Positions 3,120 to 18,167 of a stretch of DNA of 24,527 nucleotides are shown one piece after another; position 1 is the first letter of the stretch; each line of letters begins with the position of its first letter. Both the position numbers and the translations under genes were made by a program. The notes under the pieces were generated by a model that was not told the origin of the DNA, made no database searches, and saw nothing but the letters and a program-made list of their open reading frames with translations. The DNA comes from a virus. Lineage: Duplodnaviria; Caudoviricetes. The stretch lies in the IMG/VR virus record IMGVR_UViG_3300049205_000115, positions 1 to 24,527 of that record. One strand, written 5' to 3'.

Positions 3120-3472
3120 ATAATATATCCCTTGATGAATTAGTCCAGGTCCTAAAACATCAGCGTTTTGCCTTACATCAGGAAAAGGAATTACAGGCAG
3201 GCATAGAGCAGCTGTTAATTCAAAAAAGCATTGAATACACCCGGGAGGTGCCATTGTCCAAAGGAAGTATAATTGATTTTATGGTCGGTAATATCGGCAT
3301 TGAGGTTAAAATCAAAAGCGCGCCGAAGTCAATATACTATCAGTGTGTTCGGTACTGTCAGTTCCAGGAAGTTAATTCCATCATACTGCTAACAAACAAA
3401 ATCATCAAACTACCCTCAACTATTAACAAAAAGCCCACCCGGGTTATAAATTTAGGAGAAGCATGGCTTTGA
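3110..3472 (+). CDS. Small PD-(D/E)xK restriction-endonuclease-fold protein
   Basis: EKELQ...YTREVPL...IIDFMV..IGIEVKIK...QC.RY (E, D-x-E-x-K, QxxxY); start placed at ATG 3110 (MDLNN) to avoid a long overlap with the upstream gene. Confidence 0.75.
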   Translation: MDLNNISLDELVQVLKHQRFALHQEKELQAGIEQLLIQKSIEYTREVPLSKGSIIDFMVGNIGIEVKIKSAPKSIYYQCVRYCQFQEVNSIILLTNKIIKLPSTINKKPTRVINLGEAWL

Positions 3473-5148
3473 AAACATATGGCGAATTAATCTATGACGG
3501 CGATCGCAATCGCTTTGTTATTACTAAAGCAGATCCACACGTCTGTATAAAACTTAAACACATATTTCCGCGCATACCGGCCAATGGGGTTATACCGTTC
3601 CATTTCACCAACACTCCAGAAATATGTGCCGACTTACGGTGGTTCATCACCCGTTACCCATTAAAAGCATTGCCGGCCGTTATAGATAAGATTAAGGAAG
3701 GTAAATTACTGTTTGAAAAGAATATTAATGAACTGGAGGCAATACATATGCCGGGTTATGTTCCTGAACCAGTAATTTTAAATGATGGATACTTGCCGCG
3801 GACATATCAACTAACGGGCAAACAAACCCTCATAAAAACAAAACGGCTATTGTTGGGTGATGACCTCGGGCTTGGTAAAACCCTTACTGCAATACTTTCA
3901 TTTTTTACACCGGGAACATTGCCGGCTATTGCTGTAGTGCAAACACACATGCCTCAGCAATGGAAAACCGAAGCTGTTGAGAAGTTTACAAACCTCAGCG
4001 TCCATATTATAAAGGGCACTAGACCATACAGTCTGCCAAAAGCAGATGTTTATATTATCAAATATTCCTGTCTTACTGGATGGGTTAATGTCTTCCAGGA
4101 ACAGTTTTTTAAAATGGCCATATTTGATGAGTGCCAAGAGTTACGAATTGACTCGAGTTTAAAATATGGCTCAGCAATGGTACTATCAAGAAGTGCCGAA
4201 TATGTGCTTGGTTTATCGGCAACCCCTATTTACAACTTTGGTGATGAAATCTATAATGTTTTAAACCTTATTAATCCGGGATGTCTTGGCAATCGTGTTG
4301 ATTTTCTAAGAGAGTGGGCAACTCCCCATGGTCAACATCATCGTATTAATGACCCGCAAGGCCTTGGCTCTTATTTAAGAGAGAAATTCTTATTCCTTCG
4401 CCGTACACGTGCTGAAGTTGGCAGGGAATTACCACCAATCAATAAGATAATTCATACTGTTGGCTTCGATGAAAAGGAAGTGAAAAAATCAGAGGAACTT
4501 GCCAGACAGTTAGCAATGCGGGTAATGACGGGTTCTTTTGTTGACCGCGGTGAAGCCGCCCGAGAATTAGATATGTTGGCCAGATATACCACCGGCATTT
4601 CAAAGGCAAGGGAAGTAGCTCAATACGTTCGAATATTATTGGAAAACAATGAACCTGTTGTTTTAGCCGGCTGGCACAGGGATGTATATTCAATTTGGTT
4701 GGAAGAACTTGCTGACTTTAACCCAGTGATGTATACCGGTAGCGAAGTCGGAATGCAGAAGGAACGGGCCAAAGCTGCCTTTGTAAATGGTGATACTAAT
4801 CTATTCATTATATCCTTGCGGTCAGGCGCTGGTCTTGATGGATTGCAGAAACGATGTAAAACCATTGTGATTGGTGAACTTGATTGGTCGCCGAAAGTTC
4901 ATGATCAATTAATAGGCCGTGTCGATCGGGATGGCCAGCAGGAACAAGTAACAGCGATTTTCCTGGTAAGTGATAGTGGTAGTGATCCAGTAATCATTAA
5001 TTTATTGGGCCTTAAAGCTTCACAGTCTCATGGTATTGTTGACCCATTGCTTACGCCAACCGCGCAACACAGTGATGAAAGCCGTATTAAATTGCTCGCT
5101 CAAAACTATCTTAAAAAAGGGCAAACAGATATCTTTTCAAACAACTAA
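3463..5148 (+). CDS. SNF2-family (SF2) helicase/ATPase
   Basis: LLGDDLGLGKT (Walker A), IFDECQ (motif II), LSATPIYN (III), LRRTRAEV..ELP, G.GLDGLQ (V), W.P....Q..GRVDRDGQ (VI). Confidence 0.95.
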   Translation: MALKTYGELIYDGDRNRFVITKADPHVCIKLKHIFPRIPANGVIPFHFTNTPEICADLRWFITRYPLKALPAVIDKIKEGKLLFEKNINELEAIHMPGYVPEPVILNDGYLPRTYQLTGKQTLIKTKRLLLGDDLGLGKTLTAILSFFTPGTLPAIAVVQTHMPQQWKTEAVEKFTNLSVHIIKGTRPYSLPKADVYIIKYSCLTGWVNVFQEQFFKMAIFDECQELRIDSSLKYGSAMVLSRSAEYVLGLSATPIYNFGDEIYNVLNLINPGCLGNRVDFLREWATPHGQHHRINDPQGLGSYLREKFLFLRRTRAEVGRELPPINKIIHTVGFDEKEVKKSEELARQLAMRVMTGSFVDRGEAARELDMLARYTTGISKAREVAQYVRILLENNEPVVLAGWHRDVYSIWLEELADFNPVMYTGSEVGMQKERAKAAFVNGDTNLFIISLRSGAGLDGLQKRCKTIVIGELDWSPKVHDQLIGRVDRDGQQEQVTAIFLVSDSGSDPVIINLLGLKASQSHGIVDPLLTPTAQHSDESRIKLLAQNYLKKGQTDIFSNN

Positions 5149-5559: not shown

Positions 5560-6183
5560 ATGAATAATACCGACATATCCATAAGGAGCCGGGTCATTGA
5601 AACACGTCCTTTTGACTGGAAAAGCTTCAAGTTTATCCAACAGGATGATTTCAAGGAACACAACGCTATAGATAAAGCCAGGCTTAAAAACTCATTACTT
5701 ACTAATGGATTTATTGCGCCCTTCTATGCCTGGGAACATGAAGGTGTGGTTTATTGCCTTGATGGTAAACACAGATCACTTGATTTGGAACTGTTAATTA
5801 CCGAGGGTGTAGATGTGCCGGAATTGCTTGATACTACCTTCCTACGCCTTGATAGTATTGAACAGGCTGCCAAGATGGTATTATTGTTCTCATCCCATTA
5901 TGCTCAAATAACAAAAAACGGGTTAAGTGGGTTTATTGATATGTATAACCTGAACATTGATATTTTATTGGATGAAATATCATTGCCTGATATGCCTTTG
6001 ATTGAACCGCCAGTACTGCCGATACCGGATGATCTGATCAGTGATGGCCGTAATAAGCCTTCAACCTTAAAAATAACATTTGAAAGTGTTGAAGATGCAG
6101 AGCGCGCGATGCCTATGATTGACAAACTGATCAAGGAACATTTTAAAAACGCATTCTTTTCTGTTTCTTCTGGTGAAATATGA
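5560..6183 (+). CDS. ParB/Sulfiredoxin-like N-terminal domain protein
   Basis: RLKNSLLTNGFIAPFYAW...LDGKHRSL.L..L (ParB-N DGHxR-like motif); ATGA overlap with the mom-like gene. Confidence 0.75.
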   Translation: MNNTDISIRSRVIETRPFDWKSFKFIQQDDFKEHNAIDKARLKNSLLTNGFIAPFYAWEHEGVVYCLDGKHRSLDLELLITEGVDVPELLDTTFLRLDSIEQAAKMVLLFSSHYAQITKNGLSGFIDMYNLNIDILLDEISLPDMPLIEPPVLPIPDDLISDGRNKPSTLKITFESVEDAERAMPMIDKLIKEHFKNAFFSVSSGEI

Positions 6184-6797
6184 GATTAGAGTTGGCCACA
6201 TACGAAGCAGTTAAATATGCATGCCTTAATTTTCATTATGCTAAGGCTGTACCTACAGCATTGTGTAGCTATGCGGTATTTAACAACGATAACGAGTGGT
6301 GTGGCTGTATAGTTTATTCATCAGGCTCAAATCGCCATTTGGGTACCAAATTCGGGTTAGTTCAGGGCCAGGTGTGTGAGTTAGTAAGGATGGCTTTAAA
6401 TGGAAAGCAGGAAAGTACTTCAAAAGCATTATCTTTATCCCTGAAATTACTCGCCAAACATAACCCGTTATTGCAAGTCGTGGTAAGCTATGCAGATTGT
6501 GACCAGCAACATGCCGGCATCATCTACCAGGCTACGAATTGGATATATGAGGGTAAAGTACAATTGAATGGCGGTACTCCGAAGTTTTTGATCAATGGAA
6601 AGGTTACTCATAGTAGGACCATTGGCCAAAGAGGCTGGAAACAAAATATTGACTGGATAAAGAAATATAAGTGTCCTACTGCAGAGTTGGTTTATACCAC
6701 CGGCAAACATAAATACTTATACCCCCTATCCAAAGCATTAAAAGAAAAGTGTAATAAATTAAAACAACCATATCCAAAACCCGCGGTGATAGCTTAA
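6180..6797 (+). CDS. mom: Mom-family (GNAT-fold) DNA adenine hypermodification enzyme
   Basis: FHYAK..P, G.IVYS.G, CELVRMAL, S.ALS.SL.LL, VVSYAD..Q.H.G.IYQATNWIY.G and a terminal K..YLYPL...PYPK, the pattern of phage Mu Mom homologues. Confidence 0.85.
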   Translation: MRLELATYEAVKYACLNFHYAKAVPTALCSYAVFNNDNEWCGCIVYSSGSNRHLGTKFGLVQGQVCELVRMALNGKQESTSKALSLSLKLLAKHNPLLQVVVSYADCDQQHAGIIYQATNWIYEGKVQLNGGTPKFLINGKVTHSRTIGQRGWKQNIDWIKKYKCPTAELVYTTGKHKYLYPLSKALKEKCNKLKQPYPKPAVIA

Positions 6798-6855
6798 TTT
6801 GGTAAAGCGGCAGGCCCTCCAGCTTGCAGATAACGTTCGAGTCGATTTCACCGCT
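6783..6855 (+). ncRNA. tRNA-Gly-like RNA (non-canonical) overlapping the mom 3' end
   Basis: Acceptor GCGGTGA/TCACCGC (7 perfect bp) + discriminator T; T8-A9; D-stem GCTT/AAGC with GG in the loop; anticodon stem GCAGG/CTTGC with 8-nt loop CCCTCCAG containing TCC; T-loop TTCGAGT, but T-stem TAACG/CGATT is mismatched; followed by CAA rather than CCA. Confidence 0.8.
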
Positions 6856-6892
6856 CAATTATTTATATTAGCAGGCTAAAAAATAGCTTGCA

Positions 6893-7132: not shown

Positions 7133-7571
7133 GGAAGCTGAAATAGACAGTAAAGCCGAGAAAGCTAAAAAGGCAAAAGCTTCCAAAATTGAACATGAGT
7201 CACGCTTAAGGGTTGTGATGGAATGGATCTTGGAAGATTACATTTATGCCGATATGAGAAAGAGTGCTGTCGCTAAATGGGAAATATCCGAGCGCCAGGC
7301 TGAACGTTACATAGCGGATGCATATAAACTTTGCTCGGAATCAATTTCTAAAAACATTGAACAGAAGAAGGGTTATTATATATCTCGGAAAAGAAAGTTA
7401 ATTCGTGATATGGACCCATCAGAAAAGAAGACAGCCGCGGGAGTTACTGCCATAAATAAGATTTTAGATACTATGGCAGAGATAGAGGGTATTAAGACTA
7501 AGAGCGAAACCCCTATCGAAAACAATATAACTCTTAAGATTGGTTATGGCCCAAAAAACGCTGAAGATTGA
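7125..7571 (+). CDS. Probable terminase small subunit
   Basis: Directly upstream of and overlapping terL; HTH-like KWEISERQAERYI and a helical C-terminal region ending in a short beta tail (ITLKIG). Confidence 0.65.
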   Translation: MAEEAEIDSKAEKAKKAKASKIEHESRLRVVMEWILEDYIYADMRKSAVAKWEISERQAERYIADAYKLCSESISKNIEQKKGYYISRKRKLIRDMDPSEKKTAAGVTAINKILDTMAEIEGIKTKSETPIENNITLKIGYGPKNAED

Positions 7572-9027
7572 TTTTAACCCCGATCTATTTAATAATGTTT
7601 ACTGGCATTTATTAAACGCGTTCAATAATGTATTAATTCGATACATCTGGTTATTCGGCGGCTCATCCGCAAGTAAAACCTACTCAGTAGTCCAACTACA
7701 GATTGTTAAAATGATGGAGGCGCCCAATGAGAACGCCCTCATCTTACGTAAATATGCTGTAGATATCAAAGACAGTATATTTGCTGATTTCGAGTCCATT
7801 ATCGATGAATGGGGCTTAAAGGATTACTTCATCATTCAACAAAACTTCATTAAGTGTAAGGTCACCGGGTCATATGTCCGCTTTCGTGGATTGGATGATA
7901 GTGAGAAAATTAAAGGTATATCCCGATTTAAGCGGGTTATATTGGAAGAGGTTAGCCAGTTTGATGAAGTGGACCTTAAACAAATCAGGAAGCGTTTACG
8001 TGGTAAGGTTGGCCAGCAGATCATCGGGATATTTAATCCCATCAGTGAGGACCATTGGATAAAGAAAAATGTTTTCGACACTGAACTTCTTACGGAGTTA
8101 GAATCTGATATCTCCGGTATGTGGGTTAATGAGAAAGGTAACCTGGTGATCATGAAAACCAATTACTTAGACAACCGGTACATTGTCGGGCCCAACTTTG
8201 TCGATCAGCACGTAATTGATGATTTCGAGAAGGATAAGCTGACTGATAATAATTACTATCAAATATATGGTTTAGGCAATTGGGGTAAACTCCGTACCGG
8301 TGGCGAATTCTGGAAAGACTTTAACTCAAACATACATAGTGGCAATCTTAAATGGGATGAAGAATTACCTTTACATATCACTTGGGATGAAAACGTTAAT
8401 CCCTACCTTACATGCTTGATATGGCAAATAATACCATTGATCGGTGATGATGGTAAACCTACCGGTGAAAAGAAAGCATATCAAATCGATGAAATCTGCT
8501 TAGAGGACCCGCGCAACCGTGTCAAAAACGTTTGTGATGAGTTTATGGCCAGATATCCACAAGGCCGGGTAAAGGGTTTATTCATCTACGGCGACCGTAC
8601 ATCAATCAAGGAAGATACCAAAATGGAGAAGGGTGAGAACTTTTTTACCAAAATTATCCAATATTTAAATTTATATTCACCAACTTTACGTATGCAAAAC
8701 GTAAATCCCTCTATCGTTCAGAGTGGGGGATTTATCAATCAGGTGTTTGCGGGCAACGTTGAGAATTTAAGCATAGTTATAAATACGAGGTGTACCAGGT
8801 CATTATATGACTATCAATATGCATTAGAAGATAGTGACGGCACATTAAAGAAAAGTAAAAAGACACATCCGGTTACCAAAGTGCCTTATGAGGAGTTTGG
8901 CCACCCGAGTGACGCGATGCGATACTTTATGACAGTTGCATTTGGCACTGAATACATATTTTATTTAAAAGGCGGTAAACGTGTGAGTATATCAAGCGGG
9001 AAAGCGGCGAGTAGAAATAGCTATTAA
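7546..9027 (+). CDS. terL: Terminase large subunit (PBSX/SPP1-like)
   Basis: Walker A variant GGSSASKT, ALILRK, FRGLDDSEKIKG, Walker B VILEE, FNP..EDHWI, TNYLDN, YQIYGLGNWG, and C-terminal RNase-H-like nuclease WD.N ... H.SDAMRY. Start at 7546 (ORF track gives 7540). Confidence 0.95.
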   Translation: MAQKTLKIDFNPDLFNNVYWHLLNAFNNVLIRYIWLFGGSSASKTYSVVQLQIVKMMEAPNENALILRKYAVDIKDSIFADFESIIDEWGLKDYFIIQQNFIKCKVTGSYVRFRGLDDSEKIKGISRFKRVILEEVSQFDEVDLKQIRKRLRGKVGQQIIGIFNPISEDHWIKKNVFDTELLTELESDISGMWVNEKGNLVIMKTNYLDNRYIVGPNFVDQHVIDDFEKDKLTDNNYYQIYGLGNWGKLRTGGEFWKDFNSNIHSGNLKWDEELPLHITWDENVNPYLTCLIWQIIPLIGDDGKPTGEKKAYQIDEICLEDPRNRVKNVCDEFMARYPQGRVKGLFIYGDRTSIKEDTKMEKGENFFTKIIQYLNLYSPTLRMQNVNPSIVQSGGFINQVFAGNVENLSIVINTRCTRSLYDYQYALEDSDGTLKKSKKTHPVTKVPYEEFGHPSDAMRYFMTVAFGTEYIFYLKGGKRVSISSGKAASRNSY

Positions 9028-18092: not shown

Positions 18093-18165
18093 CGTGCGTT
18101 GGAGCAGTTGGTAGCTCGTTGGGCTCATAACCCGAAGGTCGAGGGTTCGAGTCCCTCACGCGCAA
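18093..18165 (+). tRNA. Initiator tRNA-fMet (CAT)
   Basis: C1:A72 mismatch, D-stem GAGC/GCTC (A11-U24), anticodon arm TTGGG-CTCATAA-CCCGA with three G-C pairs, T-arm GAGGG-TTCGAGT-CCCTC, A73; CCA not encoded. Confidence 0.95.
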
Positions 18166-18167
18166 CA

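Follow-up and report, generated by a model that had tools for sequence, protein, structure and literature searches.

The mom-like gene of this phage runs at its 3′ end into the gene of a small tRNA-Gly-like RNA, and comparison across Mom homologues indicates that the RNA is a real, conserved family linked to the enzyme, which probably serves as a dedicated glycine carrier for the neighbouring Mom. The window, i.e., the whole stretch of DNA analysed (24,527 nucleotides, positions 1 to 24,527 of the IMG/VR virus record IMGVR_UViG_3300049205_000115; Duplodnaviria, Caudoviricetes), is a 24.5-kb phage record that includes terminase and portal genes (Pfam). The ParB-like/Mom/RNA/terminase module is opened by a gene on the plus strand at 5560..6183, whose stop overlaps the mom start and whose 207-aa product is probably a ParB-N-like protein. 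This ORF has no direct Pfam match, and pairwise tests also failed; in the ESM Atlas, the best matches are at 0.96-0.97, 23 of the 30 matches being clusters in which a minority of members have ParB_N, and one match to a structure bears the name ParB_N. Upstream of related mom loci, PF02195 (E ≤ 0.01) was found in 82 of 102 ORFs tested, from 122 extracted. On the other side of the RNA, relatives often carry the terminase small subunit (43 ORFs tested of 114 extracted), and in the window the large subunit lies at 7540..9027 on the plus strand (PF04466, E 8e-41), which places the module in the interior of the phage, directly before the packaging genes, and not at a prophage edge. A putative −7 promoter element, TATATTAG (6864..6871, plus strand), has one mismatch to TAnnTTTG, the Bacteroidota −7 consensus (PMC7366714), and possibly drives the downstream packaging genes; a sigma-70 promoter and terminator scan of the window gave a chance-level result (10 found vs 9.3 expected). 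Elsewhere in the window, a gene for an SNF2-type helicase precedes the module (3463-5148, Pfam), and ARAGORN placed another tRNA gene, tRNA-Met(CAT), ahead of the genes of the capsid region (18093-18166).

The mom gene itself (6180..6797, plus strand) encodes a predicted Mom-family GNAT DNA-adenine modifier of 205 aa. It matches the Pfam Mom family PF25680 at 122.4 bits (curated cut-off 27.1, E 2.5e-35), phrog_1384 (E 1.7e-44) and Mu Mom 8bv8 (E 5e-5), and by these sequence matches it is an additional member of the known Mom family. A GNAT fold is predicted from the profile matches, and the protein aligns in sequence to the HTH-like insertion region of the GNAT-fold Mom family. In a pairwise alignment with Mu Mom (29% identity over 141 aa), R111, S124, D149 and Y159 of Mu correspond to R70, S81, D106 and Y116 of the window protein, while H58/Y59 correspond to H19/Y20 by motif alone. 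In Mu Mom, R111, S124, D149 and R151 matter, and R151 is essential (PMC13219725, available text). The R151 position is D108 in the window Mom by the same alignment, and an arginine is found there in 1 of the 104 RNA-bearing Mom clusters. Since a residue essential in Mu is replaced here, the activity or chemistry of the RNA-linked Moms may differ. The window Mom is like Mu Mom (PF25680; PDB 8BV8) in its family and in keeping the equivalents of R111, S124, D149 and Y159, whereas the settings differ: Mu has Com upstream, has no RNA after mom, has R151 in its Mom and uses host tRNA-Gly, and the window has a ParB-like gene upstream, an RNA overlapping the mom 3′ end and a replaced R151.

The non-canonical tRNA-Gly-like RNA gene (6783..6855, plus strand) overlaps the final mom codons and the stop. 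The first-pass annotation had placed the end of a Mom-like gene within a cloverleaf; the sequence agrees, with the stop TAA (6795-6797) inside the D-arm, and PF25680 confirms that the gene is a mom. Its description of most of the RNA holds as well: the acceptor stem GCGGTGA/TCACCGC has seven pairs, U73 is at 6855, the D-loop has a GG, the T-loop reads TTCGAGT, and the eight-nucleotide anticodon loop, CCCTCCAG (6815..6822, plus strand), has a C before TCC in place of U33, with C35/C36 at 6819-6820. C74 is at 6856, and the CCA is not encoded (CAA next). Thus, G1-C72, C2-G71, C35, C36 and U73, which form the bacterial GlyRS identity set (PMC9976931, available part), are complete in the window RNA. 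An undetermined or pseudo call had been expected from tRNA finders, and ARAGORN reported a tRNA-??? at 6783-6856, with Rfam RF00005 scoring 36.7 bits at 6783-6855 (gathering score 29, E 1.2e-5).

The T-stem is indeed abnormal, as had been claimed, but not by two mismatches in a five-pair stem; it is better described as a T-arm (6832..6847, plus strand; AACG/CG-A-TT) with four pairs and a bulged A at 6845. In this bulged register, all four pairs form in 32/32 clusters of the four-pair type, whereas in the canonical register pair 49-65 forms in 1/32 and pair 51-63 in 0/32. The window has AA/TT in the stem where the family usually has GG/CC, which is a compensatory change. The eight-nucleotide loop, to which the annotation had given weight, is likewise present but is one among several loop forms of the family (27/83 cloverleafs). 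Compared with a canonical tRNA-Gly, the window RNA lacks a seven-nucleotide loop with U33 and an unbroken 5-bp T-stem; as in the staphylococcal non-proteinogenic type, it has neither of the strong EF-Tu pairs G49-U65 and G51-C63. When folded alone, it is unexceptional (z −1.35) and its MFE structure is not a cloverleaf, so that the cloverleaf rests on comparison and not on folding energy. The covariance model R1 gives it 66 bits, the window RNA being part of the R1 training set.

We therefore rely on the comparison of 255 mom loci, the window included, which fall into 132 clusters at 85% protein identity, and which were scanned with a structure parser for Gly-like cloverleafs. In 83 clusters the 3′ end of mom carries a cloverleaf (sense in 72, antisense in 11), 29 have a D-armless form, 19 have none and 1 is truncated; the cloverleaf predicted beside other mom homologues was thus found in 83/132, with the 29 D-armless forms in addition. 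At score 40, the cloverleaf parser gave 1 hit in 354 control windows, and the background of the D-armless parser was 1/128. G1 was imposed in the cloverleaf scan and GC for the D-armless forms; without imposing G1, the 83 cloverleafs were identical. The loci are related, so these are not counts of independent events, and both the search pattern and the parser come from the same set of loci. The D-armless RNAs, of 65-68 nts, lie directly 3′ of mom (L271:2100-2170, L303:1185-1254, L282:2097-2164 and 26 further clusters); 21 clusters were parsed and 8 more were recognized by eye, 7 of these 8 being confirmed by R1. They consist of an acceptor stem, a short linker, an anticodon hairpin, a bulged T-stem and an encoded CCA (21/21 parsed), with a five-nucleotide loop in the 16/21 that parsed cleanly.

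Among 80 mom loci on metagenome contigs, 65 have a cloverleaf, 11 have none (9 of them from one lineage) and 4 are on contigs that end early. The module is also carried by cultured phages: in the Arthrobacter phages Zartrosa and Sicarius2 the RNA is unannotated and overlaps the mom stop as in the window, and in Salinibacter phage B2_17 and Microbacterium phage Appa it is annotated as tRNA-Gly, lying outside the ORF in Appa. In the B2_17 record, mom is split across two frames (L088:1495-2110), either by a sequencing error or by a real frameshift. Some phages have two Moms, in tandem or distant with one of them RNA-bearing (L300:860-1489, L353:507-1085; G012). ARAGORN detected the element in 28/80 of the first loci, and because of this low sensitivity the custom parser and R1 were used; Rfam found no family in seven loci with bulged or D-armless forms, four of them D-armless.

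The linkage is seen in the reverse direction as well. A pattern that combines the bulged T-arm with the acceptor end and ignores mom matched 120 viral loci, and 77 of the 80 with long flanks have a Mom match within 1.2 kb. The three misses are on contigs that stop 67-282 nts beyond the RNA, one of them with a partial Mom at its end. The other 40 loci, with flanks of at most 300 nts, were left out of this count (20/40 have a Mom match and one is not a tRNA). Since the pattern was taken from mom-linked loci and many of the loci are near copies, this is a tight linkage within the family and not 77 independent events. One RNA that a genome-wide search placed far from a chi-like mom in fact sits on the end of another mom, a more distant one. 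Two loci (L189 and L204) have a bulged T-arm and CCA with an unparsed D-arm, the former 62 nts past a mom, and are possibly further reduced forms.

Across the 104 parsed clusters, the marks used for charging are nearly invariant: G1-C72, C2-G71 and C35C36 are present in 104/104 and U73 in 103/104, and CC occupies the 35/36 place in 83/83 cloverleafs. The marks used on the ribosome drift or are deleted. Position 34 of the cloverleafs is T in 62, A in 16 and C in 5; the anticodon loop has seven nts in 53/83 (B2_17 included) and eight in 27/83, with a family range of 6-9 nts, and a seven-nucleotide loop with U33 is found in 29/83. The D-loop GG is kept in 45/83 and the T-loop TTC in 41/83, and at most 6/83 have all the canonical marks at once. 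The bulged A is present in 87/87 bulged forms (32 four-pair and 55 five-pair), while a plain 5-bp T-stem was parsed in 17/83 cloverleafs, at least two of which look bulged by eye.

The fold is conserved through compensatory change. Among 64 distinct bulged cloverleafs, 96.7% of the cells are paired, two-sided changes occur at 15/18 pairs, and the covariation score is 0.782, vs 0.198 after shuffling and no more than 0.175 when pairs are slid; in the D-armless rows (n = 21), the acceptor and T stems are 100% paired. As stand-ins for the host of the window phage we took tRNA-Gly genes from three Bacteroidota genomes, all six of which are canonical in the loop, the T-stem and the other marks, with the bulged A absent. 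The CCA is not encoded in four of these six, so its absence from the window RNA is ordinary. Comparison of the sequences thus indicates that the altered T-stem reflects a conserved architecture with a bulged A, not decay. The expectations set out in the first-pass annotation, namely a cloverleaf near most moms, acceptor-stem covariation, and an invariant GCG..CGC-U with variable translation features (the latter across the 104 parsed clusters), were all borne out, which supports its interpretation.

We also examined transcription signals and the overlap with the mom coding end. TAnnTTTG occurs within 45 nts upstream of the antisense RNA in 38/46 distinct copies, vs 2.6% of random windows and 0/46 on the downstream side. 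Among sense copies whose peptide context is suitable, 14/20 have the motif within the last mom codons, vs 1/271 elsewhere in mom; this mom-embedded motif lies about 33-44 nts before the RNA (L009, L014, L016, L048, L049 and 9 more). It was not found just upstream of the window RNA, which would depend on transcription together with mom. In 81/93 sense copies, the RNA begins no more than 8 nts from the PYPK end of Mom, and Mu Mom terminates exactly at PYPK. The stop codon of mom falls within the RNA or past it in 87/93 sense copies, so that excision of the RNA would leave a stop-less mom message; the mom ORF also runs into the RNA in 10/11 antisense copies.

The RNA is dispensable for the Mom family as a whole, since 19/132 clusters and the chi-like Mom clade have none nearby (0/80 loci; 0/81 with Mu) and five RNA-less records that were searched whole gave zero matches. 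Two RNA-less Mom groups have conserved C-terminal extensions past PYPK, of a W-K-IDR type and a GENK-Y-LG type (mom 3′ ends at L228, L236, L237, L240, L245 and L254; L386-L465), whereas the C-terminal tails of RNA-linked Moms look neutral. The conserved tail possibly substitutes for the RNA in these enzymes. In the RNA-less L025 lineage, a different long hairpin lies just past mom (L025:3625-3720, z −3.2). The distances between RNAs and between Mom proteins correlate modestly (Spearman 0.30, 0/999 permutations), and in a FastTree tree of 131/132 clusters, with the truncated L269 left out, the RNA classes are clustered yet mixed (28 changes).

Mu Mom moves glycine from Gly-tRNA-Gly onto adenine N6 to give 6-NcmdA (Silva et al. 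2026, PMC13219725, available text); the donor named in the first-pass annotation is thus published for Mu Mom. The same text reports that each of the three E. coli tRNA-Gly isoacceptors can serve Mu Mom and that Gly-tRNA-Ala is rejected. Against this background, the RNA is likely to be a dedicated glycine carrier, which would be cut from its transcript, have CCA added and be charged with glycine by the host glycyl-tRNA synthetase. EF-Tu affinity is governed by pairs 49-65, 50-64 and 51-63 (PMC3239215), so the bulge is located where EF-Tu reads; we infer that the bulged A weakens EF-Tu binding, the energy table in the available part of that paper covering no bulges. The bulged T-stem is thus predicted to keep the RNA away from ribosomes, leaving its glycine to the adjacent Mom homologue, which would use it to modify phage-DNA adenines. 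The benefit would be a free donor pool late in infection, without draining host translation. As Mu Mom uses any E. coli tRNA-Gly, the chemistry does not require a private donor.

The same linkage to mom could be explained if the RNA were a translating tRNA-Gly that replenishes a host pool drained by Mom, possibly with an altered anticodon loop that evades tRNA-cutting defences. In favour of it, no canonical mark examined is missing from up to 6/83 cloverleafs, the T-stem is a plain 5-bp one in most actinophage-type copies, some of which could still decode, and two cultured phages have the RNA annotated as tRNA-Gly. However, the window and most copies show a bulged T-stem, a loop of 6-9 nts, or the absence of U33 or of TTC, position 34 is variable next to a fixed C35C36, and 29 clusters have no D-arm, with a five-nucleotide loop where cleanly parsed (16/21). 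We consider this explanation unlikely for the family, and a translating top-up tRNA plausible just for the plain-stem actinophage copies. An eight-nucleotide loop, as in the window and 27/83 clusters, together with the frameshifted mom in the B2_17 record, would fit a +1 frameshift-suppressor tRNA, but the loop has seven nts in 53/83 clusters, B2_17 included, and is shorter in the D-armless forms, the window mom is intact, and suppression requires delivery by EF-Tu, which makes such a role very improbable. Least credible is an origin by decay from a host tRNA-Gly used as an integration site (att): the resemblance to tRNA-Gly and the weak scores in tRNA finders fit with it, but it is largely refuted by covariation, with compensatory changes at 15/18 pairs, and it does not account for the shared bulged A that host tRNA-Gly lacks, for the interior position between the ParB-like/mom and terminase genes, or for the presence in lytic cultured phages such as Appa.

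A decoy that absorbs anti-phage enzymes targeting tRNA-Gly (TacT-like acetyltransferases or FaRel2-like synthetases), in a counter-defence cassette with mom, would retain the same marks as a glycine carrier, as TacT reads U73 and G71 of Gly-tRNA-Gly (PMC9976931) and FaRel2 is described as picking tRNA-Gly via the acceptor stem, both in the portions available. It offers no reason for the near-restriction of the bulged form to mom 3′ ends (77/80) across phages whose hosts differ widely, and we give it a small probability. A similarly small one attaches to an element acting in cis on the mom transcript: as a tRNA mimic it would limit the dose of a toxic enzyme, either because its processing takes away the stop codon or by binding Mom or GlyRS. 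The stop inside or beyond the RNA in 87/93 sense copies and the RNA start within 8 nts of PYPK in 81/93, where Mu Mom ends, fit with this role, whereas 11/83 cloverleaf clusters are antisense and mostly have their own promoter motif, the ORF enters 10/11 antisense copies too, and CCA is encoded in all 21 parsed D-armless forms. A cis effect may be secondary, arising in sense copies, and not the chief function of the RNA.

The proposed glycine carrier resembles known RNAs in part. Like the NP1, NP2 and NEW tRNA-Gly of Staphylococcus aureus, which serve as Fem donors, the window RNA keeps glycine identity, has a T-stem altered at EF-Tu contacts and is a proposed donor for a GNAT-fold transferase; the non-proteinogenic staphylococcal RNAs lack the strong pairs G49-U65 and G51-C63, are chromosomal, weaken EF-Tu binding by other base pairs and supply cell-wall Fem enzymes (PMC12256121, PMC3239215, available portions). 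Unlike them, the RNA studied here is phage-borne and gene-linked to its enzyme, its T-stem has a bulged A or lacks a pair, and some of its forms are D-armless. The irregular 8/4 and 9/3 tRNAs (Mukai et al., PMC5389517, available text) likewise have a non-canonical T-stem length, with a bulged A in some, and some are charged yet unused in translation; the acceptor here has 7 bp, however, and theirs are for other amino acids, and a word search of that paper found no mention of Mom. Mitochondrial tRNA-Ser(GCU) lacks the D-arm, as do relatives of the window RNA, but it translates, whereas the D-armless relatives are from bacterial viruses and have bacterial glycine identity (PMC9976931, available part). 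Term searches of the main text, text supplements and preprint of PMC13219725 gave no mention of a phage-encoded tRNA, and the available portions of Iyer et al. on jumbo phages and of a Microbacterium phage survey hold no description of the RNA, which is also undescribed in Rfam. In the literature searched, with subscription papers mostly outside the search, no phage enzyme with its own rebuilt carrier RNA (bulged T-stem, D-armless) was found. Hence, the Mom family and the staphylococcal non-translating tRNA-Gly donors are known, and the pairing of a phage enzyme with such an RNA was not previously found described.

The Mom donor was identified only recently, as ordinary host tRNA-Gly (Mu Mom, PMC13219725, available text). 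If the glycine-carrier reading is true, many phages supply their own donor RNA, and the module shows how a DNA-modifying enzyme obtains aminoacyl-tRNA despite competition from EF-Tu. Many members of this RNA family are missed by Rfam and ARAGORN; the cultured phages Zartrosa, Sicarius2, Appa and B2_17, whose hosts are harmless, carry the module, so the reading is directly testable. It is possible, though we would not yet lean towards it, that a large ParB-linked Mom branch consists of two-part DNA-modification systems, each with its own RNA, pared from a tRNA-Gly to a bulged-T-stem form and in many phages to a minimal D-armless, CCA-ending carrier, which host GlyRS would still charge and the cognate enzyme would prefer or need. 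Such RNAs would be a class of D-armless aminoacyl-RNAs that serve DNA chemistry in bacteria instead of translation. Should the carrier role hold, dedicated non-translating tRNAs would extend from staphylococcal cell walls to the protection of phage DNA, and the family would provide natural examples of an EF-Tu anti-determinant, the bulged A, and of D-armless chargeable bacterial RNAs.
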